From assembly GCA_964612105.1 (NCBI GenBank), contig CAZTEU010000005.1, forward strand, positions 45,039 to 109,038: a stretch of DNA of 64,000 nt, read 5' to 3'. Made by a program: the position numbers and the translations under genes. Source of the DNA: an uncultured Gammaproteobacteria bacterium (GTDB taxonomy: Bacteria; Patescibacteriota; Patescibacteriia; Magasanikbacterales; UBA922). Positions 3,089 to 52,060 of this stretch are shown piece by piece (position 1 is the first letter of the stretch; each line of letters opens with the position of its first letter). Below the pieces are notes generated by a model. That model was given only the letters and a program-made list of their open reading frames with translations. It was not told the origin of the DNA and made no database searches.

Positions 3089-5485
3089 CTAATCGCGAAT
3101 ATTAGCCCCAAACTTCTTCTTAAGTACTTCTTTTATTTTCTTCTCAATCTTACCAACCTCTTCTGTCTCTAATGTTTTCTCATCTGACCTATACTCTATA
3201 TGATATGCCATACTCTTTTTGCTTTCACCAAGTTTTTTACCTTCAAATACATCGAACAGCTCTGCGTTCACAACCAGATTATTTGATTTCAGTACTGTAT
3301 TCACAATCTGTGCATGTTCAACACTTTTGTCTACAACAAGAGCAATATCATGTATTACACTTGGGTATACAGGTAATCTAGAATATGACCCCTCTTCTAG
3401 CACTAGGCCTGATAGTACACTTAAATTAATTTCCGCAATTGCAACACGATTATCTATACCAAAAGCTTCCTGTGTTGCGGGGTGTAATTCTCCAACAAAA
3501 CCAACATCTGTACCATTTACTTTTATCTCAGCAAACCTACCAGGGTTTATAAATGGTAAACCTGTCTTACCAGATGTTGAAATTATTTCTATTTCTTTGT
3601 TATTTAATGAATCTGTAACAGCATTACTTACTTCATAGAAAGGAACATCATTTCCTTTCTGCGTAAACGCAACAGCAAGCATTGTATCTTGTCTTTCTAT
3701 ATTTTTATTATCAAATGTTCTTCCAATCTCAAACAGCTTTACTGAATTAAATCTATGAGCATTCATCTCTATTTTCTCCAGTAGGTTTGGAATTAGATGT
3801 TTTCTTAAATATGGTCGTTCTTTAGAAACCGGATTGTCTAATTCTAAATAGTCTTTTTTGTTAAGCCCTACTCTTACTATTGTCTGCCCTGACACGAAAG
3901 AATAATTATGAACCTCTGAGTATCCTTGCCCATAGGCTAATTGTTCTGTAATTTTCCTCTCCAGAGAGCGTATAGGATTATTAGCTGGTGGCTTTATTCC
4001 AAACGTAGGTAAAGTAGGTTGTATATTTTCATATCCATATATACGTGCAACTTCCTCAACTATATCTTCTGCAATAGAAATATCTTTAGTTGCTCTCCAA
4101 GATGGAACACTAACACTAAATACTCCACCTTTTACTTTCACACCAAAACCAAGCCTATCTAATATGTTCACCGCAATGCCCATTTCTATACTTTCTCCAA
4201 TTCTTTCCTCTATATAGGAGAAATCAATTTCAATAGGACCTTGATTAAGTTCAAAATTACTTTCATCAACAATATTACTACTCACTTCTGCACCAGGAAT
4301 TAATTCTTTCACTAGTTCTACTGCACGCCTAAGAGCAATTTCTGCATTGTTTGGATCTAAACTCTTTTCAAAACGAGATGATGAGTCTGTTCTTACACCA
4401 ATTGCTGTAGAAGTTTTCCTAACATTTGTAGAATCAAAATTTGCAGATTCAAAAACGATGTCTGTTGTTCCTTCTTCTACCTCACTATTTGCACCACCAA
4501 TTACCCCAGCAATTGCTATAGCTTTATTCTTGTCTGCAATAACAAGATTCTCACTTGTTAATGTTTGTTTTTGTCCGTCTAGAGTATCAATACCCTCTCC
4601 CTTTTTTGCATTCCTAATAATTATTTCATCCCCTATCTTACTTCCATCAAAAGCATGCATTGGCTGTCCAATATCCAACATTACATAATTTGTTATATCC
4701 ACTATATTGTTTATAGGACGCACGCCAACAGATTGCAATCTTGACTGCATCCAAGAAGGCGATGAGCCTATCTTAATTCCACTCATAGCAACAGCCATAT
4801 ATCGCGGACAAAGAATCTTATCTTTTACTTTTGCAGATAACTTACGCTTCCTTCCTGCTTTTATCTTTGCGGGTTTATATTCAATTAATTTTTTCTGATA
4901 AATTGCTGAGGCTTCGCGTGCTATTCCATAATGACCCCACAGGTCTGGGCGATGTGTCATTGATTTATTATCTACCTCCAAAACAACATCATCTTGTGCC
5001 AAAGCTTTCATTAATGGTGTCCCAATCTCAAAATCCAAATGACTTAAATCTATAATTTCCTTTTCGTCTTTCTGAGGAAAAAGTTCGCCTAAACCAATTT
5101 CTTCCGATGCACAAATCATTCCAAAACTTTCCACACCTCTTATTTTTGTTTTTTTGAGCTCTATTAATTCTTCTTCTCCGTGCCATTTTACTTTTGCACC
5201 AAGTTTTCCTAGTGCAACCTTCATCCCTTTTGTAACATTAGAACCACCGCACACAACTTGCACCTCTCCATTACCAATATCTACATGACATACTTTTAGT
5301 CTATCTGCGTCTGGATGTTTCTCTACTTTATTAACTAGACCAATTACAACATTGTGTAACAACTCCCCAAGAGTTGATACACCTTCAATTTCTACTGTTC
5401 TAATTGTGAGTTTCTCAGCTAAATCTTCCGGAGTTACCTTTTCCAGATTTACATAATCAGAAAGCCAATTTTTTGAAATCAACAT
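3089..5485 (-). CDS. pheT: phenylalanine--tRNA ligase beta subunit
   Basis: 798 aa; N-terminal MLISKNWLSDYV..., B3/B4 and FDX-ACB-like C-terminus; immediately downstream of pheS. Confidence 0.95.
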   Translation of the reverse strand: MLISKNWLSDYVNLEKVTPEDLAEKLTIRTVEIEGVSTLGELLHNVVIGLVNKVEKHPDADRLKVCHVDIGNGEVQVVCGGSNVTKGMKVALGKLGAKVKWHGEEELIELKKTKIRGVESFGMICASEEIGLGELFPQKDEKEIIDLSHLDFEIGTPLMKALAQDDVVLEVDNKSMTHRPDLWGHYGIAREASAIYQKKLIEYKPAKIKAGRKRKLSAKVKDKILCPRYMAVAMSGIKIGSSPSWMQSRLQSVGVRPINNIVDITNYVMLDIGQPMHAFDGSKIGDEIIIRNAKKGEGIDTLDGQKQTLTSENLVIADKNKAIAIAGVIGGANSEVEEGTTDIVFESANFDSTNVRKTSTAIGVRTDSSSRFEKSLDPNNAEIALRRAVELVKELIPGAEVSSNIVDESNFELNQGPIEIDFSYIEERIGESIEMGIAVNILDRLGFGVKVKGGVFSVSVPSWRATKDISIAEDIVEEVARIYGYENIQPTLPTFGIKPPANNPIRSLERKITEQLAYGQGYSEVHNYSFVSGQTIVRVGLNKKDYLELDNPVSKERPYLRKHLIPNLLEKIEMNAHRFNSVKLFEIGRTFDNKNIERQDTMLAVAFTQKGNDVPFYEVSNAVTDSLNNKEIEIISTSGKTGLPFINPGRFAEIKVNGTDVGFVGELHPATQEAFGIDNRVAIAEINLSVLSGLVLEEGSYSRLPVYPSVIHDIALVVDKSVEHAQIVNTVLKSNNLVVNAELFDVFEGKKLGESKKSMAYHIEYRSDEKTLETEEVGKIEKKIKEVLKKKFGANIRD

Positions 5486-5486
5486 A

Positions 5487-6497
5487 TTAAAACTGTTTCA
5501 AAAATCTTAAATCCCCACTCCTTAAGTGGCGTATGTCTTCAATATGATACTTAAGCATCACAAGACGATCAAAACCAATACCAAAGGCAAGTCCCTGATA
5601 CTCTGCTGGATCTAAACCAGCCTCACGAATAACATTCGGATGCATAAGGCCACAGCCTAACATTTCCATCCATTTTTCATTTCCGTTAACATCTGTATAT
5701 TTTATATCCAATTCAAAACCAGGCTCAACAAACGGGAAATAACCTGGACGCAACCTTACATCCATCTCTTTCCCATAAAAACCAGAGATAAGTTCCTTCA
5801 TAACCCCTATTAAATGCCCTACTGTTATATTTTTATCAACTACAAATGCTTCAAACTGTTCAAAAGTATGTTCGTGTGTTGAATCCAGAGCCTCATTACG
5901 ATATACACGACCTGGATAAGCTATGCGCAAAGGTGCACCATATTTTTTTAGCAAACGTACCTGCATGTTAGAAACATGAGGGCGCATGCACATTTTTTCA
6001 TTTCCTTTTATATAAAACGTGTCTTGACTATCTCTTGCAGGGTGGTACGCAGGAATATTTAACGCTTCAAAACAATAATAATCACTATCCAGCTCTGGAC
6101 CATCTTCCACCATAAAACCCATTCTCTTAGCCACATCTTCCATATGCCACATTGCTTGTGTAATAGTATGTATATTCCCCTGTTCTCTTCTTGGTACTAA
6201 AGGTTGAGTTACATCAATCTTTTCTGCCTTTGCTACATCATCCCACTTTTTTCTTTTAAGCTCTTGTTTCTTTTCTTCAATGCCTCCAACCATAATTTGT
6301 TTTATCTCATTGGCTGTTTTACCAACTTCTTTTCTCATATCCTCAGATAAGTCTTTCATCTCTTTCATAACTAAACTCATCTTTCCTGTCTTACGAGCAA
6401 AAAAATCTTGTTCTAACTCTTCTAGAACATTAAGAGTGCCAACCTTCTTTAATTGCTTAACGAATGAATCCTGAAGTTTTTTAAGTTTATTTTCCAT
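5487..6497 (-). CDS. pheS: phenylalanine--tRNA ligase alpha subunit
   Basis: 336 aa; class II aaRS motifs (FRNE..., GxGxGFDRLVML). Confidence 0.95.
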   Translation of the reverse strand: MENKLKKLQDSFVKQLKKVGTLNVLEELEQDFFARKTGKMSLVMKEMKDLSEDMRKEVGKTANEIKQIMVGGIEEKKQELKRKKWDDVAKAEKIDVTQPLVPRREQGNIHTITQAMWHMEDVAKRMGFMVEDGPELDSDYYCFEALNIPAYHPARDSQDTFYIKGNEKMCMRPHVSNMQVRLLKKYGAPLRIAYPGRVYRNEALDSTHEHTFEQFEAFVVDKNITVGHLIGVMKELISGFYGKEMDVRLRPGYFPFVEPGFELDIKYTDVNGNEKWMEMLGCGLMHPNVIREAGLDPAEYQGLAFGIGFDRLVMLKYHIEDIRHLRSGDLRFLKQF

Positions 6498-8560: not shown

Positions 8561-8590
8561 AAAAAAAGCGCTATGCGCTTTTTTTAATAC
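8561..8590. terminator. rho-independent terminator (AAAAAAAGCGCTATGCGCTTTTTTT)
   Basis: Stem AAGCGC/GCGCTT with flanking A/T runs. Confidence 0.75.
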
Positions 8591-8679
8591 TAGACAAAAA
8601 GGTATGGGAGCGAACGAATCTTGTTTCTACGCCCCCTCAACCCCGCCCCAGATGGGACTAGTGTGGGACGGCGAGGCTA

Positions 8680-8916
8680 CTAACCCCTACTCGTGGTGTT
8701 GCTGTTCCAGACGAGGTCGAAGACCAGCGCCAGGAATAGGCTCATCGTGCAGATGCAGAACAGCACGATGCCGGTGTCGAACATCATGTGCTCGAAACCG
8801 TTCAGCCTGATACCATTGCAGCTGATGGCTGCACTTCGGTACATCGCGGATGCACCACCCACGATGAACAGAACTATGCAACCGATGAAGCAAGAACCAA
8901 ACAGCTTCCAGAACAT
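8680..8916 (-). CDS. small membrane protein (78 aa), island A gene 1
   Basis: Two hydrophobic helices; AAGGAGGGGAAA immediately upstream of ATG (rc of 8917-8932). Confidence 0.6.
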   Translation of the reverse strand: MFWKLFGSCFIGCIVLFIVGGASAMYRSAAISCNGIRLNGFEHMMFDTGIVLFCICTMSLFLALVFDLVWNSNTTSRG

Positions 8917-8990
8917 TTTCCCCTCCTTGAGGAATAGGTAACCTTACGGTCACCAGCGATAAGTACGTTCGCTCAACCTTTCTATCTAGT

Positions 8991-9040
8991 ATAGATTGTA
9001 AAGAGTTTTTGTTTTACCAAACAAAGAAGTGACGGGAGTG
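8991..9040 (+). repeat. intergenic repeat copy 1 (TTGTAAAGAGTTTTTGTTTT ... AAGAAGTGACGGGAGTGAA)
   Basis: Near-identical 20-mer plus related purine-rich 19-mer also at 9576-9628; third inverted partial copy at 9955-9975. Confidence 0.7.
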
Positions 9041-9084
9041 AATTGGATTCAGACTCGCCACCTCGCAGGCTCCTTCTCCTGCGA

Positions 9085-9498
9085 TCAGCGACGGCCCGTG
9101 TGTTGCTCGTCTGCGATCGTCGCCACCCCGGCGAACAGGATAGCGACACTGATGAGCCCAAGGATGGCCCACACCGTCGCCTCTGGATTCAGCACCATCT
9201 GGGCGCTGAATATTCCGCCGTACATGACGGCGGTGAAAACCATCCCAGCGAAGCTCGCCAACCAGACGAACATCCCCGTAACCAGGATTACCATCCCATC
9301 CCAGCGGGAGAAGGTCGACAGGTTGCAGATGCAACCCAAACCAGCCGCCACGAAGATGAAGGCGCCGATCAACAGCGCCAATGTCGCGAACTCGAGGAGG
9401 AACGGCAGGGTGAACACCCAGCCGAACACCTTCATGGCCACGCCCATGATGGTCGCGACTAGAGCCAAACTGACCGTCGGGATATCAAAGAAACGCAT
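9085..9498 (-). CDS. polytopic small membrane protein (137 aa), island A gene 2
   Basis: Four hydrophobic segments; CAAGGAGGAGAAAATG upstream. Confidence 0.6.
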   Translation of the reverse strand: MRFFDIPTVSLALVATIMGVAMKVFGWVFTLPFLLEFATLALLIGAFIFVAAGLGCICNLSTFSRWDGMVILVTGMFVWLASFAGMVFTAVMYGGIFSAQMVLNPEATVWAILGLISVAILFAGVATIADEQHTGRR

Positions 9499-9575
9499 TT
9501 TCTCCTCCTTGCTCGTCTACTGACGAGCTGTAGGCGTTTCGTCCAAAATTCACTCCACTTCTTTATTTGGTATAA

Positions 9576-9628
9576 GTTGTAAAGAGTTTTTGTTTTTCTA
9601 CTAAACAAGAAAGCGAGGAGGTGAACAT
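9576..9628 (+). repeat. intergenic repeat copy 2 (TTGTAAAGAGTTTTTGTTTTT ... AGAAAGCGAGGAGGTGAA)
   Basis: See copy 1. Confidence 0.7.
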
Positions 9629-9683
9629 AGTACGTTACAACCCCTCGCTGGAAACTGCTCCACAGGAAAAGGGTTGAAAGATC

Positions 9684-9920
9684 TCACTCGACGTCGTTGC
9701 ACACCGAGCGCACGGGCTCCTCATCGCTGTACCAGCCGAGGGGGGCTGCATAAACGACGAGGCCACCGATGCTCCCGAGGGAGGCCAGGGACAGACCCAG
9801 AATGGCCGTCTCCACCCGCCCCGCATCAGGGACGAGGAACAGGCCGGTGGCGAAGAGCCCCAGACCCACGAGGAGGAGGATGAAGAAACAGTGGGAATCA
9901 CGATCACGGCGACTACGCAT
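9684..9920 (-). CDS. small membrane protein (78 aa), island A gene 3
   Basis: Two hydrophobic helices; GGAG 8 nt upstream of ATG; TG-extended -10 promoter at 10027-10040. Confidence 0.5.
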   Translation of the reverse strand: MRSRRDRDSHCFFILLLVGLGLFATGLFLVPDAGRVETAILGLSLASLGSIGGLVVYAAPLGWYSDEEPVRSVCNDVE

Positions 9921-9954
9921 GGCAAACTCCAGCCTAGGTTACTTGAACGACGAT

Positions 9955-9975
9955 GTGTCGGACTTGTTCACCTCG
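9955..9975 (-). repeat. inverted partial repeat copy 3 (rc: AAGAAAGCGAGGTGAACA)
   Basis: Reverse complement matches purine-rich half of copy 2; lies about 40 nt upstream of island A gene 3. Confidence 0.6.
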
Positions 9976-10026
9976 CTTTCTTACTTAGTATATTTTAAGG
10001 TACTACTATCCTATTTTACCAACACA

Positions 10027-10042: not shown

Positions 10043-10070
10043 AACCCCTTTTGTCAAGGGGTTTTTATGG
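10043..10070. terminator. bidirectional terminator AAAAACCCCTTTTGTCAAGGGGTTTTT
   Basis: 10-bp perfect stem, loop TTGTC; related hairpin at 21637-21665. Confidence 0.8.
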
Positions 10071-19889: not shown

Positions 19890-21224
19890 ATGACAAAAGA
19901 AACAATAATCTTCGTGTGCTCTAACTGCGACGCTCAATTCCAGAAATGGACTGGACAATGCTTCGAATGTGGTAAATGGGGTACAGTAGAAAACAAGACA
20001 GCAATCACAGATAACAAATCTGGAGACAGTAAAGTTATTGGTGTAGGTGTAAACACACAAAAGCTAGGTGAAATAAAAAATGTAGATTCTTTTAGGAACT
20101 CCTCAAAAATTGGAGAACTAGATCGTGTTCTTGGTGGTGGAATAGTACCAGGTAGTTTAATACTTCTTGGAGGAGAGCCTGGTATTGGAAAATCCACTCT
20201 TTCTTTGCAAATTGCAAACAATATGAAAAAGTCACTATACATTTCTGGAGAAGAATCAATAAATCAGATTAAGATGAGAGCAGACAGACTTGGTAATGCA
20301 AATGCAGATATGTTAGTTATGCATGAGAATGATATAGAAAATATATGCGCAACAATAAAAAAAGAGTCTCCGGAGATTGTAATAATAGACTCAATACAAA
20401 CAATGATATCCAATGACACAAGTGGAGAGCCTGGAAATGTAAATCAGGTGCGTGTGTGTGCAACAAAGCTTTTGGATTCTGCTAAGCAAAGTAAGAGTGC
20501 TATAGTTATTATTGGTCATGTTACAAAAGATGGTTCTGTTGCTGGACCAAAGACTCTGGAACATCTAGTAGATACTGTTTTGTACATTGAGGGAGATAGG
20601 TACTACCAAACAAGACTTTTGAGAACAATAAAAAATAGGTTTGGCTCTACAGATGAAGTAGGTGTCTTTGAAATGAACGAACTCGGTCTTAAGGAAGTAA
20701 AAAACCCATCATCTGCTTTCTTAGAAGAGCGTGCAGATGATACGCCTGGCAGTGTTGTTACTTGTCTTATAGAAGGCACTCGCCCACTACTAATTGAGGT
20801 GCAGGCATTAGTAAATAAAACTAGTTTTGGATATCCTGTACGCAAAGCAAGCGGTTTCGATCTAAATAGATTACATGTACTTGTAGCTGTACTACAAAAA
20901 AGAGCAGGACTGCAGTTAGGTCAGTATGATATCCATGTAAATGTAGTTGGAGGATTAAAAGCACAAGAGCCGGCTGCAGACTTAGCAGTATGTCTTGCTA
21001 TAGCAAGCTCTTTTAAGGACAAGGTACTTGGTGGAGATTTGGTAGTTTTTGGAGAAGTTGGATTAGGTGGAGAAGTAAGAAGAGTAAATCAGTCTCAAAA
21101 AAGAATAAAAGAGTGTGAGAAACTTGGTATGCAACGAGTAGTAACTTCCAAAAACCCAGGTAATGTTCATGGAACAAAGATTATAGAAGTAAAGAATATA
21201 GCAGAACTAATCCAGAAAACATAA
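19890..21224 (+). CDS. radA: DNA repair protein RadA (Sms)
   Basis: N-terminal C4 zinc finger (CSNCDAQFQKWTGQCFECGKWG), RecA-like Walker A GEPGIGKST, KNRFG motif, Lon-like C-terminus. Confidence 0.95.
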   Translation: MTKETIIFVCSNCDAQFQKWTGQCFECGKWGTVENKTAITDNKSGDSKVIGVGVNTQKLGEIKNVDSFRNSSKIGELDRVLGGGIVPGSLILLGGEPGIGKSTLSLQIANNMKKSLYISGEESINQIKMRADRLGNANADMLVMHENDIENICATIKKESPEIVIIDSIQTMISNDTSGEPGNVNQVRVCATKLLDSAKQSKSAIVIIGHVTKDGSVAGPKTLEHLVDTVLYIEGDRYYQTRLLRTIKNRFGSTDEVGVFEMNELGLKEVKNPSSAFLEERADDTPGSVVTCLIEGTRPLLIEVQALVNKTSFGYPVRKASGFDLNRLHVLVAVLQKRAGLQLGQYDIHVNVVGGLKAQEPAADLAVCLAIASSFKDKVLGGDLVVFGEVGLGGEVRRVNQSQKRIKECEKLGMQRVVTSKNPGNVHGTKIIEVKNIAELIQKT

Positions 21225-21244
21225 AACCACCTTGTGGGTGGAAT

Positions 21245-21610
21245 ATTGACCGCCGACCCGCCCGAACCACTCAGAAGCAAGCTTCTTTGTGATCCGGACA
21301 GGTCAGACGTGTGAGACTGGTTGAGAACTACACCATACCAACGTGGGCATTGGAGATTCCGATGGAACCCCTGATGATCTGGCCAGACGCTGTGAGGTTG
21401 TAGTTGGAACAGGCACGAACATACCCGCGGTAATTCTCACGGTCATCTTCCGTGCGATTACCGCTCAGAATCCACCTCGCGTAGTCCTGAGGGATTCTGT
21501 GCTCAACACGGAGCCTGGCAACAATCTGTCGCCCCTGTGAAAATTCGCTCTGATGGACACTCATGCTCTCTTTCCTCCTGTTTAGGGGTATTTACCCCTA
21601 AGAAATTGAA
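21245..21610. other. GC-rich micro-island B
   Basis: 60-nt sample 21251-21310 counts 36/60 G+C versus 20/60 in adjacent recG 3' end; flanked by hairpins CCACCTTGTGGGTGG and AGGGGTATTTACCCCT. Confidence 0.7.
21328..21564 (-). CDS. hypothetical 78-aa protein, island B
   Basis: CAGGAGGAAAGAGAGCATG upstream; no recognised domain. Confidence 0.5.
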   Translation of the reverse strand: MSVHQSEFSQGRQIVARLRVEHRIPQDYARWILSGNRTEDDRENYRGYVRACSNYNLTASGQIIRGSIGISNAHVGMV

Positions 21611-21636: not shown

Positions 21637-21665
21637 TCCCTTTTGTCAAGGGATACTTTTTATTC
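21637..21665. terminator. terminator hairpin ATCCCTTTTGTCAAGGGAT + T-run
   Basis: Shares CCCTTTTGTCAAGGG core with 10043-10070. Confidence 0.7.
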
Positions 21666-33569: not shown

Positions 33570-33600
33570 ATCATGTACACAAAAGCCCCCATAAACTGGG
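33570..33600. terminator. terminator AAAAGCCCCCATAAACTGGGGGCGTTT
   Basis: 6-bp GC stem after topA stop. Confidence 0.7.
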
Positions 33601-33869
33601 GGCGTTTGTGTAGCGGAGAGGAGGTAACCTCAATGCCTGTGGTAATATAAAGGCCCTCAACCCGCTACAAAATACAGGATATCAGAAAAAAGGAGAAAAT
33701 ACAAGAAAAAGAAAAGTCCCGAATAATTTCGGGATTTTTCTCGGCCTTGGGATTACCCTACCTCTATATTACCTACGGACAATTATAGCAATAAAATATA
33801 GATTTGTCAAGTAGGAGTGTAAATAAATCGGAAAAATAAAAAATCATCCTTTTTTAGGATGAATCGTTT

Positions 33870-35060
33870 CACCCTGCCCAGCGTTTCTTGCTGAGCAGGG
33901 TGTGCCTCCTTTTTTGGTAAGGTCATGAGAGACCGAGTGTCCGAGGAACCAAGTTCCACTACCCGAGAGCCAAGGAACCTAGCATCCTAGGGCTGACGCT
34001 TGCTACGGACGAGAAAACGAGAGCGGTCACCCCAGCCGCCGTCAAACCAGCGGAGATAAGTTAAGAGGTGCTGACCGTTGCCGTCGCTCCAGACACACGG
34101 GCAGCCCCGGTCACCGTTCAGGTCCTGCCAGACGCTTCCGAGCGCGACCAGTGGCCATTCCAGACCGACTTCTTGATGTTCGGCGCAGTATACGAGCAAA
34201 TCGCGCAACGAGGCGACCTCGTAGCCTTGTTTCTTGATCTCATCCAGCACTGCTGTGGTGTGCAAACGCTTGTTGAAATGCAAAACCTCGAGACTGTACT
34301 CGTAGTCAGGCTGGTCATCCGGAAGGGGGAAATTCTCGGTAGTGATGTTATATTCGACGTAACCGAACCCACATGCCCCAATGAGCTGTTGTAATTCATC
34401 CGGAGAGGTCTCTTCATCAGAAACGGTCTTCTTACGACGGACCAGGAAACGGTAGTAGTTGATCCACCTGCTCTCAAGCCAGTCGAAATCCAGACGCCGA
34501 CCGTTTCTATCACGCCAGACAAACGGACAACACTGGCCACCGTGCACATTCTGCCAAGTACTCCCGAGTGCGGACAATGGCCAGTCCAGGCCGACTTTGG
34601 AATGTTCGGCGCAGTATACGAGCAAATCGCGCAACGAGGCGACCTCGTAGCCCTGCTTCTTGATCTCATCCAGCACTTCCGTGGTGGTCAGACCCTTGTT
34701 GAGGTGCAGAACCTCGAGACTGTACTCGTAGTCAGGCTGGTCATCCTCGAGCGGGAATTTCTCGCCCATGATGTTATCATCCACTGAGTGGAACTTGCAT
34801 GCTCCAATGAGCTGTTGCAGTTCGTCCGAGATAGGCACTTCGACCAGCTTGTCGAACCGCCCTTCCACAATCGCTTGGAGCGCTTTTTTGACCAGAGCTG
34901 GGTCGTACGGGCACCCCCTCTTCTGCCGAAGCAACCTCTTGATCTCGTGGAGCTGACCATCAATCTCGAAATACAGATCGCCTGCAACGCTAAACGCCAT
35001 GACAATCTCCTCTTTTCTAAGCTACAAATGCCAACGCACTCGCGCCAACACTCTTGCCTG
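33870..35060. other. GC-rich micro-island D
   Basis: Sharp compositional shift; single long minus-strand ORF with RBS, multiple overlapping antisense ORFs typical of high-GC DNA. Confidence 0.7.
33987..35000 (-). CDS. hypothetical 337-aa protein built from two tandem ~150-aa repeats (unrecognised domain), island D
   Basis: AAGAGGAGA upstream of ATG; internal repeat SDELQQLIGAC.F...DDQPDYEYSLEVLH.NK..TT.VLDEIKKQGYEVASLRDLLVYCAEH..VGL.WPL.ALGS.WQ....G..CP.VW.D.NG present twice. Confidence 0.6.
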   Translation of the reverse strand: MAFSVAGDLYFEIDGQLHEIKRLLRQKRGCPYDPALVKKALQAIVEGRFDKLVEVPISDELQQLIGACKFHSVDDNIMGEKFPLEDDQPDYEYSLEVLHLNKGLTTTEVLDEIKKQGYEVASLRDLLVYCAEHSKVGLDWPLSALGSTWQNVHGGQCCPFVWRDRNGRRLDFDWLESRWINYYRFLVRRKKTVSDEETSPDELQQLIGACGFGYVEYNITTENFPLPDDQPDYEYSLEVLHFNKRLHTTAVLDEIKKQGYEVASLRDLLVYCAEHQEVGLEWPLVALGSVWQDLNGDRGCPCVWSDGNGQHLLTYLRWFDGGWGDRSRFLVRSKRQP

Positions 35061-35157
35061 TTTTGGAACTGGATAAAGCATACCAAAATATCACTATATG
35101 TCAAGTATGGTGCTAGAACTTGCCAAAATAGTAAAAAATGGTTAAAGTAAATGGGCT

Positions 35158-36636: not shown

Positions 36637-36665
36637 AAGAACCCCGGAAATCCGGGGTTTTATGA
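36637..36665. terminator. bidirectional terminator AACCCCGGAAATCCGGGGTTTT
   Basis: Perfect 7-bp stem between convergent rel and parB. Confidence 0.8.
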
Positions 36666-37529
36666 TAGTTCTTCTATAAGCCGCTTTAGTTCATCGCTTG
36701 AATGATAGTGTATTGTGATTCTTCCTTTTGCACCTTTCTGTGTTATTTCTACTTTTGTACCAAGACGATCCTCTAGAAGCATCTCCTGAGCACGTATATT
36801 TGGATCTCTACGAGTAGAACCCTTACGAGAAGAGGCTGGTTGATTATGATAAACTTCTCTTTCTACTTCTGCAGATGTCATACCCTTGCCAATCATGGAC
36901 TTAAACATGCTAAGTTGGTCCTTAGTACTCTTAAGACTAACTAATGCTCTAGCCTTTCCAACATTTATTTTCCCATCAATAAGCGCCTTTTGTATTTCTT
37001 CAGGTAAATCTAGTAGACGAATAGCGTTACTTACAACCGGCCTTGATTTTCCAACCTTTTGTGCTATTTCATCATGAGAAAGAGAAAACTCCTCATGTAA
37101 TCTTTTATACGAAAAAGCTTCCTCGATTGGGTTTAGGTTCTCTCTTTGTATGTTTTCTATAAGAGCAAGCTCTAGCTTGTTTTGTTGTGTTGCGCTACGC
37201 ACTAAAGCCGGAACAGTAGAGAGTCCAGCAATCTGTGATGCTCTTAAACGCCTTTCTCCTGCAATAAGTTCATAACCACCATCTTCCTTTTCTGTTACAG
37301 TTAATGGCTGTAAAATACCATGTTCTTTTATGGACATTACAAGACCTTCCATCTCATCATGACCAAAAGTCTTTCTTGGTTGCTCTGAGTTTGGAACAAT
37401 CTCTGAGATGGGAATATGCCATATCTTATCTTTAGAATTCTCGGCAGGACCAGAAGAGGTCTGTGAACGACTCTTCTTTTTTGATTTAGTAGGTGGAATC
37501 AATGATTGTAGACCTTTACCCAATGCCAT
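36660..37529 (-). CDS. parB: chromosome partitioning protein ParB/Spo0J
   Basis: ParB box GERRLRASQIAGL, HTH. Confidence 0.9.
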   Translation of the reverse strand: MALGKGLQSLIPPTKSKKKSRSQTSSGPAENSKDKIWHIPISEIVPNSEQPRKTFGHDEMEGLVMSIKEHGILQPLTVTEKEDGGYELIAGERRLRASQIAGLSTVPALVRSATQQNKLELALIENIQRENLNPIEEAFSYKRLHEEFSLSHDEIAQKVGKSRPVVSNAIRLLDLPEEIQKALIDGKINVGKARALVSLKSTKDQLSMFKSMIGKGMTSAEVEREVYHNQPASSRKGSTRRDPNIRAQEMLLEDRLGTKVEITQKGAKGRITIHYHSSDELKRLIEELS

Positions 37530-37530
37530 A

Positions 37531-38307
37531 TTAATATATTGATGTAGTGTGAATATCTAAAACTTCTCTTGCAAGACGCTCGTATGCTTTTGCCCCCCTG
37601 CTTCTAGGGTCATAATGAAAAATACTTTGTCCAAAGCTTGGGGCTTCTGCAAGTCTTACAGTCCTTGGGATTACAGAACGAAATATTGTATTTGGAAAAA
37701 ACCTATACAACTCCCCCATTACATCATCTGCTAACTTTGTGCGCTTATCAAACATTGTTATCACTGCTCCAAGTACAGATAATTCCGGTTTTAGGTGAGT
37801 TTGTACGAGCTGTATTGTCTGTAATAACTGCCCTAGTCCTTCCAAAGCATAATATTCCGCCTGTACAGGAATGAGTAGCTCATCTGCTGCCACAAGCGCA
37901 TTCACAGTCAACAATCCAAGTGATGGAGGGCAATCGATAATAATATAATCATACGCATGACGTACCTCTTCCAATATGTCTGATAACTGGTGCTCTCGTC
38001 TCTCCATTCCAACTAATTCTATATTTGCTCCAGCTAGATGATGGTTACATGGGATAATTCTTAAACCTTCGTGTGCTGTATTGTGTACTACATCATGTAT
38101 TCTTTTCTGTCGTGCCATTGCTTCATAGAGACTGTTGTCTAGCTCATTTCTTTGTATCCCATATCCACTAGATGCATTACCTTGAGGATCCATATCTACC
38201 AATAAGACAAAACGGCCACTCTCAGCAAGTGCGGCAGCCAGATTCATTGAAGTTGTCGTTTTCCCCACTCCACCTTTTTGGTTCACTACGGCGATAATTT
38301 TGCTCAT
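37531..38307 (-). CDS. parA: chromosome partitioning ATPase ParA/Soj
   Basis: Deviant Walker A KGGVGKTTTSMNLAAALAE. Confidence 0.9.
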   Translation of the reverse strand: MSKIIAVVNQKGGVGKTTTSMNLAAALAESGRFVLLVDMDPQGNASSGYGIQRNELDNSLYEAMARQKRIHDVVHNTAHEGLRIIPCNHHLAGANIELVGMERREHQLSDILEEVRHAYDYIIIDCPPSLGLLTVNALVAADELLIPVQAEYYALEGLGQLLQTIQLVQTHLKPELSVLGAVITMFDKRTKLADDVMGELYRFFPNTIFRSVIPRTVRLAEAPSFGQSIFHYDPRSRGAKAYERLAREVLDIHTTSIY

Positions 38308-38316
38308 ATTTACGCG

Positions 38317-38330
38317 TATTATAGCACAAT
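38317..38330 (-). promoter_or_regulatory. TG-extended -10 promoter (TTGTGCTATAAT) about 10 nt upstream of parA start; implies leaderless/near-leaderless mRNA
   Basis: Same 13-mer as 2700-2713 and 10027-10040. Confidence 0.5.
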
Positions 38331-38374
38331 ATTGACAAAGGAGCTACTCTAGAATATAATTATCAACACCGCAT

Positions 38375-38456
38375 GCCCGAGTGGCGGAACTGGTAGACGC
38401 GCACGACTCAAAATCGTGTTCCTTCGGGAGTGAGAGTTCGAGTCTCTCCTCGGGCA
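38375..38456 (+). tRNA. tRNA-Leu (anticodon CAA), type II with long variable arm
   Basis: GCCCGAG...CTCGGGC acceptor, anticodon loop CTCAAAA, T-loop TTCGAGT; followed by terminator. Confidence 0.9.
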
Positions 38457-38490
38457 CAAAAAAAACACCCTTGTTTGGGGTGTTTTATAT
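38457..38490. terminator. terminator AAAAAAAACACCCTTGTTTGGGGTGTTTT
   Basis: Member of recurring AAAAACACC...GGTGTTTT hairpin family. Confidence 0.75.
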
Positions 38491-38985
38491 TATAGCTCTT
38501 ATTGTACCCCCAGCAAAAAGAGTGATTAGTGTAACAAGGGTGGCTGCAATACAAATACCGATTGCTATCAAAGGTACAGATTTTTTGAAAGGTATATTAA
38601 AAACAAAAGAAGCAAGTGAGCCTGTCCATGAGCCTGTAAACGGAAGAGGTATACCAACGAATATAACGAGTCCAATAGCACCATATTTCGAGTACTTGCC
38701 TGCAAAAGCCTTTTCTGCTTTTCTTAGGTGGTGAGAAAGTACAGGTCCTAGTATTCTACGCTTCATCACCCAATCATGTAAAAGTGGCATTAAATATAGT
38801 ATTGCCAGTGCTGGAATTAAATCACCAATAACAGCAATTATCCATGTTTTCCATATTTCTAGACCGTATATCTCAATACCAATTGGAATAGATGCGCGTA
38901 ATTCTGTTACAGGAATCATAGATAATAACAAAACAGCTAGTTCTGGACTCATGTTAGAAAAAAGTTGTATAAAATAATCTGCCAT
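38485..38985 (-). CDS. small multidrug-export-like membrane protein (COG2426-like); start taken at MADYFIQ
   Basis: Polytopic; conserved PVTELR motif region. Confidence 0.5.
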   Translation of the reverse strand: MADYFIQLFSNMSPELAVLLLSMIPVTELRASIPIGIEIYGLEIWKTWIIAVIGDLIPALAILYLMPLLHDWVMKRRILGPVLSHHLRKAEKAFAGKYSKYGAIGLVIFVGIPLPFTGSWTGSLASFVFNIPFKKSVPLIAIGICIAATLVTLITLFAGGTIRAII

Positions 38986-42934: not shown

Positions 42935-43231
42935 CTATTTGAGAGGTAAACGTTTTTGTTTTTCCATTATTATTTTCTGAGCCTGCTTTTTTCCTTTTGC
43001 TGTTAACTTAATATGAGTGATAAACCACTTCTGCTCTGTTCTCCTTCCATATCCTACCATATATCCACTAGAAATTAACCTCTCTAAACTCTTAGTAACA
43101 TTGTTAGTTTGGTTTTTAATGTCCTTACCTCGGTCTGTTTTATAGAACCCTAAAAACACCTCACGATCCACTCGCCCCCCTTTATTCATTGAGGTAAGTA
43201 AAATGTGGCGCTGTAGTGCCCTAATTGCCAT
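42935..43231 (-). CDS. hypothetical basic 98-aa protein (possible winged-helix)
   Basis: ORF track only. Confidence 0.4.
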   Translation of the reverse strand: MAIRALQRHILLTSMNKGGRVDREVFLGFYKTDRGKDIKNQTNNVTKSLERLISSGYMVGYGRRTEQKWFITHIKLTAKGKKQAQKIIMEKQKRLPLK

Positions 43232-43436
43232 ATTTTTGGCTTAGTTGAGCTAAATTTCTATTGTAATTATATCATAATTCTGCTTGTAATATCAAGGAAT
43301 AGTCAAGTTGACAGGCATACTTTTTTGTGCAACAATGAAAAAACCAGCGTCGTTATGGCGGGGTCATCCCAATGCGGGATTAGGGTGTCTTCTTCTTCCA
43401 CACCAACAAAGGAAGATTTTTCAAGGAGGTGTCGTT

Positions 43437-43799
43437 ATGGCATCTAGACAGTATGAGTTTTTGGACAAGACCGGAGAGACTTGGTACCACATCGTAGAAG
43501 GTATGTGTCCCGGCATTTGGGACCTGATTATCAACTCACTTGTGCGCGGTAACCAGTGCACTGTGATAATCTACACCCAAAGCCAAGCCTCTGGACAAAG
43601 ACTGGGCATCGAGCTGACACACCTGAAGAGTGTCACCAACCTCACGTCGTACGTCGACAAAGAGTGCGAAGAGTGGGCACTCGTTGCAACAACCCCGTGG
43701 AACTGGGTAACCGTGCGGTTCAACACCAAGACGCGACATGGACGCCTCCGGTTCCTGACGAAAGAGGAAGAGAGGGTGTGCACCACGCTCATGGAGTAG
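43437..43799 (+). CDS. hypothetical 120-aa protein, island E (start at MASRQYEF after AAGGAGG)
   Basis: CAAGGAGGTGTCGTTATG; ORF track's longer 43308 start lacks RBS. Confidence 0.5.
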   Translation: MASRQYEFLDKTGETWYHIVEGMCPGIWDLIINSLVRGNQCTVIIYTQSQASGQRLGIELTHLKSVTNLTSYVDKECEEWALVATTPWNWVTVRFNTKTRHGRLRFLTKEEERVCTTLME

Positions 43800-43821
43800 A
43801 GGTAACCCCACACAGACGACA

Positions 43822-43862
43822 AGACCCCCGTTCCTGCAAGGTTCGGGGGTCAATTCTTTTTT
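43822..43862. terminator. terminator GACCCCCGTTCCTGCAAGGTTCGGGGGTC + TTTTTT
   Basis: 8-bp GC stem. Confidence 0.75.
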
Positions 43863-43868
43863 ATAAGA

Positions 43869-45641
43869 TTATTTCTTTTTCTCTTTTCTTTTCTCTAAAC
43901 CTAACTCTTCCAACTGTTCTTTGTCTACCTCTGCAGGACTTCCCATCATTGGTTCTTCTGCTTTCTGGTTTTTAGGGAATGGCACAACAGAACGGATATT
44001 GTTTTCTCCAAGTAGTAACATTGCCAATCTTTCTATTCCAGGTGCAAAACCGCAATGAGGAGGTGCTCCATATTCAAAAGCATCTATCATGTGTCCAAAC
44101 TTTTTGTCTACATCATCTTTGGAATAACCTGCAATTTCAAAAGCTTTGTACATAATCTCCGGATCCTTGTTTCGTACAGCTCCAGATGATAATTCTAATC
44201 CGTTTGCAATAATATCATACTGATAACCCAGTATATCCAATGGGTCTTTATTTTCTAGCGCCTCCATTCCACCTTGTGGCATAGAGAATGGATTATGACT
44301 AAAGTCTATCTTGCCTGTTTCTTTGTCTTTTTCATACATTGGAAAATCTACAATCCAAGCCCACGCAATCATGTTTGGATCTGCTAGTTCCATGTTCTTT
44401 CCAACAAGATGACGAACAGCACCTAGTGCTTCACAACTCACCTTCCAACTGTCTGCAACAAAAAACACAATACTCCCCTCCTCTGGTTCTAATCTTTCTT
44501 GTAAGTCATTTAATGCTACGCCTGTAAAGAGTTTCTTAATTGGTCCACTAAATCCACCATGCTCGAATTTCATCCAAGCAAGACCTTTTGCATGATTTCG
44601 CTTTGCTACATCTTCATATTCATCAGTTATATCTTTTCTAGAAAATGAAGCTCCACCTGGAACATACAATGCTTTTATACTCTCTGCTTCTTTAAAAATA
44701 TTAAAATCTGTTGCATTTCCCCAGTCTGTAAGATCTATTAGTTCCAAATCGTAACGCAAGTCTGGACGATCTGAACCATATCTGTCCATTATTTCTGTAA
44801 ATGCTAACCGAGGTATTTTTTTATCTTTTAATTTCTTTTTAGCAACCTTCGTTGTAAGTTCTATAAAAAGAGGTTCCATTAAATCGAAAAACTCATCCTG
44901 TGTCATAAAGCTTACTTCACAATCTAGCTGATAAAACTCTCCTGGCGAACGGTCTGCTCGCGGATCTTCGTCTCTCATACAAGGCGCAATCTGATAATAT
45001 TTATCAAAACCTGCAACCATTAGTAATTGCTTGTATTGTTGAGGCGCCTGAGGCAGAGCATAAAATTTTCCTGGATGAATTCTACTTGGAACCAAAAAAT
45101 CTCTAGCACCTTCTGGAGAGCTCACTGTAAGAAGAGGTGTGGCAATATTTATGAAATCATTCTTTTCCATATAATTGCGAATATGCTTTTCCATTTTCGA
45201 TCGAAACAATACGTTATTCTTCAACTTCTCACGTCGCAATTCAAGGAAACGATACTTTAGACGCAACTCCTCTTCCTCTTCACCCTTACCAGAGTCGAAA
45301 ATCTCAAACGGCATTGTTTTTGCCTCACTTAAAATCTCTAGCTCGCTAGCTAAAACTTCAATCTCTCCTGTTTTTAATTTTTTATTTACTGTTTTTGAAT
45401 CTCTTTTTACAACCTTTCCAGTAATTTTTATTATAAATTCATATTTTAAAGTCTCTGCCAAACCAAAGTCTGATACTTTGTCAGGATTAAATACAACCTG
45501 AGTAATTCCATAGCGATCTCTTAAATCAACAAAAATAAGACCACCTAGGTCTCTGCGCTTATGCACCCATCCGGCCAAAGAAACCTCTTTGCCTGTGTTT
45601 TTTTTGCTTAATTCTGCGCAATTGTGAGTTCTATATGACAT
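43869..45641 (-). CDS. aspS: aspartate--tRNA ligase (bacterial type with GAD insertion)
   Basis: 590 aa, anticodon-binding OB fold N-terminus, class II motifs, FRDE/GGSIR-type region. Confidence 0.9.
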   Translation of the reverse strand: MSYRTHNCAELSKKNTGKEVSLAGWVHKRRDLGGLIFVDLRDRYGITQVVFNPDKVSDFGLAETLKYEFIIKITGKVVKRDSKTVNKKLKTGEIEVLASELEILSEAKTMPFEIFDSGKGEEEEELRLKYRFLELRREKLKNNVLFRSKMEKHIRNYMEKNDFINIATPLLTVSSPEGARDFLVPSRIHPGKFYALPQAPQQYKQLLMVAGFDKYYQIAPCMRDEDPRADRSPGEFYQLDCEVSFMTQDEFFDLMEPLFIELTTKVAKKKLKDKKIPRLAFTEIMDRYGSDRPDLRYDLELIDLTDWGNATDFNIFKEAESIKALYVPGGASFSRKDITDEYEDVAKRNHAKGLAWMKFEHGGFSGPIKKLFTGVALNDLQERLEPEEGSIVFFVADSWKVSCEALGAVRHLVGKNMELADPNMIAWAWIVDFPMYEKDKETGKIDFSHNPFSMPQGGMEALENKDPLDILGYQYDIIANGLELSSGAVRNKDPEIMYKAFEIAGYSKDDVDKKFGHMIDAFEYGAPPHCGFAPGIERLAMLLLGENNIRSVVPFPKNQKAEEPMMGSPAEVDKEQLEELGLEKRKEKKK

Positions 45642-51489: not shown

Positions 51490-52060
51490 TAGCAAAACAA
51501 AAAAACACCATATTAGTGTTCTTTTGAATTGGGCCGAGATTTTGTATAGGTACTCGGCCGTTTAACCTATGTTGTCGTACTCCCCTTACTCGGTAGGCAT
51601 CTCGACATCGCTGACGTCGACACCTAGAGCCAAGGCGCATACTTGGTAGTCCGCGACGCGATTCTGGTAGATCGACCCTCCAACGCATCGCACGAAGCGC
51701 GTAACGAAGTCCTTGAACCCGTGGTCCAGGTCCATGGCAGTACAGATGATGTGAGATGCCGCATACCTGAAGTCTTCGTCGACCATACCATACATGAAGT
51801 TCTGCAGGGCACTCTCGCAGAGTCCACCACACAGTGAGTCAGCCAGAGGGATGTCCTTCCAGGCGATGTAGGTACGGTTATTGTAGCCACGTTCCTCGTG
51901 AAAGAGTGTTTCATATGAGACCCCCTTCTCTTGAATCGCCGCTTTATTGAGGAGCCAAACCTTCAGACACTTGCTGACCTGGGCTTGCAGATACTGATTC
52001 ATTTCCATCTCCTTGTAAAGAGCCTCTATTTTGTCCTCCACCACGCCTTTTTGTGATTTC
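51490..52060. other. GC-rich micro-island F
   Basis: Compositional shift bounded by hairpins (AACACCATATTAGTGTT, GGCCGAG...CTCGGCC). Confidence 0.65.
51586..52002 (-). CDS. hypothetical 138-aa Cys-containing protein, island F (start at MNQYLQ after AAGGAG)
   Basis: CAAGGAGATGGAAATG; ORF track GTG start further upstream lacks RBS. Confidence 0.5.
   Translation of the reverse strand: MNQYLQAQVSKCLKVWLLNKAAIQEKGVSYETLFHEERGYNNRTYIAWKDIPLADSLCGGLCESALQNFMYGMVDEDFRYAASHIICTAMDLDHGFKDFVTRFVRCVGGSIYQNRVADYQVCALALGVDVSDVEMPTE

Follow-up and report, generated by a model that had tools for sequence, protein, structure and literature searches.

A GC-rich orphan gene between aspS and a winged-helix gene of Candidatus Magasanikbacteria: a probable horizontally acquired single-gene cassette

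The stretch of DNA analysed here (the window) comprises 64,000 nucleotides of contig CAZTEU010000005.1. Between aspS and a small winged helix-turn-helix (wHTH) gene it contains a short GC-rich segment, island E, with one open reading frame (ORF) of 120 codons, orf120. Island E is probably a horizontally acquired, lineage-specific cassette that resembles a phage moron and carries a single gene for an orphan soluble protein. The host was assigned to Candidatus Magasanikbacteria (Patescibacteria, candidate phyla radiation, CPR) by its aspS neighbour, and the gene content of the window (37.8% GC) includes housekeeping functions typical of a streamlined bacterium. Beside aspS and the wHTH gene, an AftA-like glycosyltransferase gene, scpA/B, parAB and recO flank the island. 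Island E itself (43341-43876) has a GC content of 51% with a peak of 56% and sharp borders in the GC profile, which agrees with an earlier reading of the letters alone (the sequence-only reading) that had described a GC-rich island. The following features were assigned in the insert and its left border:

43298..43866, no strand: whole insert, without homology to the gap of the sister species (alignment with that genome, L010; GC profile)
43437..43799, plus strand: orphan coding sequence of 120 amino acids, orf120 (ORF, codon-position GC, composition)
43266..43295, minus strand: promoter-like site of the wHTH gene, TTGATA-18-TATAAT with TG (consensus scan, 11/12)
43308..43336, plus strand: sigma-70-like promoter, TTGACA-17 nt-AACAAT with TG-extended -10 (consensus scan, 10/12; a consensus match only)
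43343..43436, plus strand: GC-rich 5' leader of about 95 nt (fold z = -0.38, no significant structure)
43423..43429, plus strand: Shine-Dalgarno (SD) motif AAGGAGG, 7 nt before the ATG (read from the sequence)
43823..43862, plus strand: intrinsic-terminator-like hairpin with T-run (8-bp GC stem, inner 3-bp stem)

The ORF at 43437-43799 was found on the plus strand exactly as the sequence-only reading had given it, including the translation. The GC contents of its first, second and third codon positions (GC1/2/3) are 0.49/0.42/0.69. In the host, GC3 amounts to 0.261±0.026 with a maximum of 0.32 (43 ORFs); orf120 thus lies about 16 standard deviations above the mean, and its relative synonymous codon usage is negatively correlated with that of the host (-0.35). 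The codon-position periodicity of GC in orf120 is significant (shuffle P=0.0004; chi-square P=1.7e-4), and a stop-free run of 152 codons is rarely reached in shuffles of the island (P=0.017). In the leader the in-frame GC3 is 0.25-0.35, that is without a coding signature, and it jumps to 0.6-0.8 exactly at the ATG at position 43437. Gene callers proposed versions of 154 and 163 amino acids; the additional residues show no coding signature and the respective starts overlap the predicted promoter. The rise of GC3 at 43437 therefore favours the start of the 120-amino-acid version. The product has a mass of 14 kDa and a pI of 6.3, is rich in Thr, Val, Ile and Trp, and showed neither an evident signal peptide nor a transmembrane segment on inspection. 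It is probably a small, soluble, cytoplasmic protein, and a low-confidence structure model suggests that it is rich in beta strands.

The ORF, its SD motif, the promoter-like site and the hairpin form a self-contained unit, and in this respect the sequence-only reading was correct. The TTGACA box that it had placed at 43303 is present as well, at 43308-43313. The promoter of the island is AT-rich, host-like and arranged back to back with that of the wHTH gene (42935-43231, minus strand), whose promoter-like site would serve this divergent gene and lies within a flank that is conserved with the sister species. The arms of the terminator-like hairpin are GACCCCCG (43823-43830) and CGGGGGTC (43844-43851), followed by AATTCTTTTTT up to position 43862. 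A GC-stem terminator had thus been recognized correctly, but its supposed contrast to the hairpins of the host held only in part, since similar GC-clamped terminators belong to host genes in the same window (GCCCCC..GGGGGC at 33585-33603; AACCCCGG..CCGGGGTT at 36640-36659). As the hairpin is located within the part that cannot be aligned with the sister species, it belongs to the insert; its style, however, is not diagnostic of a foreign origin. The ORF had also been described as lying upstream of aspS. It does adjoin this gene, but aspS is located on the minus strand (43869-45641), so that orf120 and aspS converge with their 3' ends facing each other. On the strand of aspS the hairpin is situated 17 nt beyond the stop codon and is not followed by a T-run; read-through from aspS, antisense to orf120, is therefore possible.

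Two further details of the leader were observed. The 11-mer GTCGTTATGGC occurs at two start codons and has two copies in the window, one at 43349-43359 and one at 43431-43441, the latter at the ATG of orf120. The former includes the ATG (43355) of an upstream ORF of 30 amino acids, which ends with TAG at 43447 and overlaps the start of orf120 by 11 nt; this copy is situated right where the GC-rich segment begins. The pair of 11-mers and the overlap could represent a duplication scar or an arrangement for translational coupling.

The second line of evidence is the state of the same slot in relatives. The nearest species representative is OZ246405.1 (L010), whose AspS is 83% identical, while the neighbouring proteins are about 60% identical. 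Both genomes possess the order aspS-gap-wHTH-AftA-ScpA, and their flanks can be aligned on the left as far as about 43297 and on the right again from about 43866. The borders of the insert are thus defined to approximately 10 nt, by the wHTH promoter region on the left and the 3' end of aspS on the right, both of which are conserved. The gap between them measures 637 bp in the window and 491 bp in the sister species, where it contains another insert of about 50% GC with an ORF of 79 amino acids in the same orientation, which has its own SD motif and hairpins. No similarity between the two inserts was detected at the protein, DNA (blastn) or six-frame (tblastx) level, and shared ancestry of the two slot ORFs is not detectable in sequence comparisons. 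In 11 other loci on 10 contigs, aspS is followed in the same direction by the wHTH gene at a distance of 2-138 bp, and nothing lies in between. These loci were obtained via homologs of the wHTH protein (L090, L091, L092, L093, L095) and from a metagenome scan (L102, L118, L123, L124, L125), and the comparison covers those lineages that have the wHTH gene downstream of aspS. The scan for closer relatives revealed nothing above 72% AspS identity. As the pair is close and co-directional in the relatives, a tight aspS-wHTH pair is the ancestral state, and the window and its sister species carry insertions. The synteny comparison proposed by the sequence-only reading thus showed an insertion, and the same gene at the same locus was not encountered across the lineage.

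The searches for homologs showed orf120 to be a strict orphan. A word-indexed search of 5.8 billion clusters and an exhaustive HMMER search (phmmer) of 1.84 billion representatives returned self-matches only. The profiles of Pfam, PHROGs, PADLOC and NCBIfam gave no match, nor did PDB sequences, the viral contigs of IMG/VR or tblastn searches of phage and plasmid collections; the alternative frames and the extension to 163 amino acids had no Pfam match either. A search in Actinobacteria had been suggested by the sequence-only reading. Homologs were found neither there nor anywhere else; the segment is alien in composition, but no donor can be named. In addition, at least 24 contigs of JGI, ENA, Logan and NCBI assemblies encode the protein of orf120 with 100% identity and have the same neighbours around it in every case. 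In a stretch of 1.1 kb with the island in its middle, the DNA of these contigs does not vary, except for one substitution (43914, inside aspS) in one contig. An assembly chimera was thereby ruled out, since the junctions are common to independent assemblies.

Island E is accompanied by four further GC-rich islands (51-54% GC) between AT-rich housekeeping genes of the window:

8566-9993: island A
21198-21609: island B
33843-35080: island C
51520-52049: the remaining sibling island

These four islands and island E account for about 6.5% of the window. The main ORFs of the siblings have a GC3 of 0.62-0.81. The codon usage of all island ORFs is negatively correlated with that of the host (r = -0.05 to -0.52) and positively correlated among the islands (r = 0.35-0.67). 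The siblings share the layout of an AT-rich TTGACA promoter, a GC-rich leader and a GC-stem hairpin, and a strong SD motif is located 5-8 nt from the ATG in five of the seven island ORFs examined. No relatedness among the five islands was detected at the DNA or six-frame level, and the ORFs of the siblings did not fall into Pfam, PHROGs, PADLOC or NCBIfam families, whereby not every ORF was compared with every library. The protein of island C belongs to a small family: a version with one repeat occupies the same slot in a strain of about 98.5% identity (L177, from ERZ23499059), a paralog is found elsewhere in the same genome (L178), and a relative of 38% identity and native composition is encoded on a contig of 57% GC beside a cyclic oligonucleotide-based antiphage signalling system (CBASS) and HsdM (L176). 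This relative is native in composition to a GC-rich organism, which speaks for import from GC-rich donors. The repeats of island C diverge mostly at the third codon position (29/22/15 differences at positions 3/1/2), as is expected under selection.

GC-rich islands were also seen at other loci of AT-rich Magasanikbacteria: L011 carries two (4083-4610 and 5046-5561) with paralogous lipoprotein-like ORFs (GC3 0.84-0.87), and L014 has one at 3297-3536 with an ORF of 79 amino acids (GC3 0.82). In the genome of the window itself, an island of 54-58% GC (L178, 2401-3600) encodes a protein of the Pfam family GCS2 (carboxylate-amine ligase). The siblings and these islands support repeated import from GC-richer donors, and islands formed by horizontal gene transfer (HGT) are reported to account for up to 13% of the genome length in Patescibacteria (PMC12455944). 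On such cassettes in Magasanikbacteria or Patescibacteria, only general HGT surveys were found in the literature.

The kind of element described here is already known. Like the single-gene HGT islets with ORFan cargo surveyed in Patescibacteria (PMC12455944), island E has an atypical composition and codon usage and a short uncharacterised cargo, is missing from the orthologous site in relatives and is embedded among conserved housekeeping genes; unlike them, it has no identifiable donor or homolog and no mobility machinery. It also differs from usual ORFans in being much GC-richer than its host. ORFans and acquired DNA generally have a higher AT content than the genome of the host, as was reportedly found, for example, by Daubin and Ochman (2004). 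In an AT-rich host, the opposite direction is less surprising. Phage morons in the sense of Hendrix and Juhala are extra genes with their own promoter and terminator and a deviant composition, which are inserted between two conserved genes. Island E resembles them as a promoter-gene-terminator unit (judged by consensus matches only) of deviant GC content between genes that are adjacent in relatives, and likewise in the presence of unrelated cargo at the same slot of a related genome. However, its flanks (aspS, the AftA-like glycosyltransferase gene and scpAB) are chromosomal and do not belong to a prophage, and no match to PHROGs, phages or viral contigs was obtained.

Several points weigh against the interpretation as a transferred cassette. 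Neither a donor nor a homolog is available, so that composition and phyletic pattern are the only grounds for assuming a horizontal transfer. No integrase or transposase was identified among the ORFs in or beside the island, and there is no convincing target-site duplication or terminal repeat, direct or inverted; ends of the transposon or integron type were not found. The nearest tRNA gene is 5 kb away. The promoter is host-like, and only the transcribed part is therefore alien. All available copies are clonal and offer no variation for a dN/dS or other test of selection. The sister genome OZ246405.1 seems to be missing from the protein databases, as its own wHTH protein was not returned in the homolog search, and a relative of orf120 might still be encoded elsewhere in that genome. 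Finally, the single-sequence AlphaFold model, an all-beta meander, is unreliable with a predicted local distance difference test (pLDDT) score of 48. A Foldseek search of the PDB with this model gave no significant match, and fold matches of such a model would be meaningless; the structure prediction proposed by the sequence-only reading was therefore of no use as a check.

Three other explanations were considered. The first is that island E is a non-functional remnant, a recently imported piece of foreign DNA whose frame is still open for want of time to decay and which yields no useful product. A strict orphan without variation that could reveal purifying selection would fit this explanation, as would a GC3 that has not been ameliorated toward the host and thus implies a recent arrival. 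In this context, the slot ORF of the sister species, whose GC1/2/3 of 0.62/0.45/0.38 shows no enrichment of GC3, could be a decaying counterpart. A remnant would, however, hardly be expected to form a complete unit with a TG-extended promoter matching 10/12 positions, an optimally spaced SD motif, an ORF that fills the distance from this motif to the terminator, and a hairpin with T-run. The same ordered layout recurs in all four sibling islands, and the excess of third-position differences in island C likewise speaks against a remnant. We therefore regard this explanation as unlikely.

Still less probable is a native, fast-evolving gene that entered the slot before the split of the two species and diverged beyond recognition without ever being replaced. 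It would explain why both species possess a small GC-rich ORF with SD motif and hairpin in the same orientation at exactly the same slot, next to a common wHTH promoter flank, and a rapid loss of similarity is conceivable where even the neighbouring proteins have diverged to about 60% identity. Yet no residual similarity is left in the DNA, the six-frame translations or the proteins, the lengths are unlike (120 and 79 amino acids), and in a host whose GC3 is 0.26, a value of 0.69 would hardly persist over such a divergence, except under selection or after a recent import.

In AT-rich genomes, intergenic islands of high GC content frequently represent structured RNAs, and island E shares with them the sharp borders, the intergenic position in an AT-rich genome and the promoter and terminator. 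A structured RNA or riboregulator with an incidental ORF, suggested by a GC-rich part that extends beyond the ORF and coincides with the predicted transcript from leader to terminator and by a fold z of -2.3 for the whole island, is nevertheless very improbable, because no Rfam family matched, the antisense strand gave a similar value (z = -2.0), which indicates an effect of composition and not of structure, the leader is unstructured, and a strong three-base periodicity in frame with the SD motif and the ATG of a long ORF is not expected of an RNA gene. At the gathering thresholds, Rfam found two tRNAs in the whole window and nothing in the island; with Rfam 15 and E<=10, the best score in the island was at most 18 bits against thresholds of 33-70, with nothing relevant among the matches. 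Island E thus looks like a protein-coding element and not like an RNA gene. For annotation, the start of the 120-amino-acid version should replace the calls of 154 and 163 amino acids, and no RNA gene should be assigned to the region.

For a horizontally acquired cassette, the following course of events can be proposed. The DNA, or at least its transcribed part, would have come from a GC-richer donor. As neither mobility genes nor terminal repeats are present, it probably entered by DNA uptake and illegitimate recombination. The insertion would have split the ancestral tight and co-transcribed junction of aspS and the wHTH gene, and the latter would now rely on its own promoter in the conserved flank. 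Transcription of the cassette presumably begins at its own promoter and proceeds away from the divergent wHTH gene; the transcript would end at the hairpin of the cassette, which faces the convergent 3' end of aspS. The content of the slot appears to turn over between sister species.

As to the function, no families of defence, toxin or immunity proteins were found for orf120 at E<=0.1 in PADLOC, Pfam and NCBIfam, which does not exclude a novel member of one of these classes. A dispensable protein for the interaction with a host, a competitor or a phage, for example an orphan immunity or anti-defence factor, is a doubtful suggestion; it was made since this class is typical of strain-specific single-gene islets with a fast turnover. 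Considered alone, orf120 is one more orphan accessory gene in a CPR genome, and its value lies mainly in the annotation. Island E is a clean and clearly delimited case of foreign single genes that are wired into the streamlined genomes of episymbionts, for which both empty sites and another occupant of the slot are available, and together with its siblings it might provide a lead to the donor or host organisms of this uncultured lineage.

It is a speculative idea with a low probability that such islands are a systematic feature of marine AT-rich Magasanikbacteria, which would then harbour many single-gene, GC3-rich and mostly orphan cassettes with strong promoters of the host type. In two of the islands, the loop of the terminator hairpin of the upstream gene contains the -35 box of the promoter. 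If the idea were true, it would imply a recurrent route of acquisition from a GC-rich partner, for instance competence-mediated uptake from the host of the episymbiont, and a cargo devoted to the interaction with hosts, competitors or phages; the composition of the islands and their rare homologs could then be used as tracers of host identity.

Some observations on the siblings deserve mention. Island A contains three small tandem ORFs, which appear to encode membrane proteins on inspection and are parted by a repeated AT-rich promoter-like spacer. The 15-mer CCCTTGACAAAAGGG has exactly two copies in the window (10046-10060 and 21638-21652, both on the minus strand; 0.12 expected). They are located shortly downstream of the stop codons of housekeeping genes (pgm-like and recG), at the 5' ends of islands A and B. 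The 15-mer forms a hairpin of the terminator type, and the -35 box of the island promoter is provided by its loop. As a domain of the island C protein has a C-type-lectin-like fold, a diversity-generating retroelement was considered. It was rejected, because the repeat mismatches of island C are not A-specific (16/66) and no partner repeat for island E was found in the window. Apart from island C, none of the GC-rich islands contains an ORF of at least 250 amino acids, and the other long ORFs of the window were not scanned for a reverse transcriptase domain.

The wHTH protein next to island E consists of 98 amino acids and belongs to no Pfam family above threshold. Its gene lies directly downstream of aspS in all 10 of the homolog-bearing contigs examined (homologs P0005-P0021), and the protein appears to be a small, uncharacterised regulator with a fixed position in the synteny. 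In two of the comparison loci (L123, 5804-5874; L124, 2395-2466), the aspS-wHTH spacer of about 72 nt is GC-rich and conserved, contains complementary CCCGCC/GGCGGG arms and has the pattern …CCGCC.TTAGGACGGGATCCCT.CT.G.GGCGGGAC…; it may be a terminator, an attenuator or a small regulatory element.

A last observation concerns the partition genes of the window. The ENA contig SUTE22-1 scaffold_217 (L002) differs from the window in about 390 alignment columns, which are confined to parA/parB (37000-38500), and is otherwise identical. The clustering of these differences indicates a putative recombination tract in which the partition genes were replaced.
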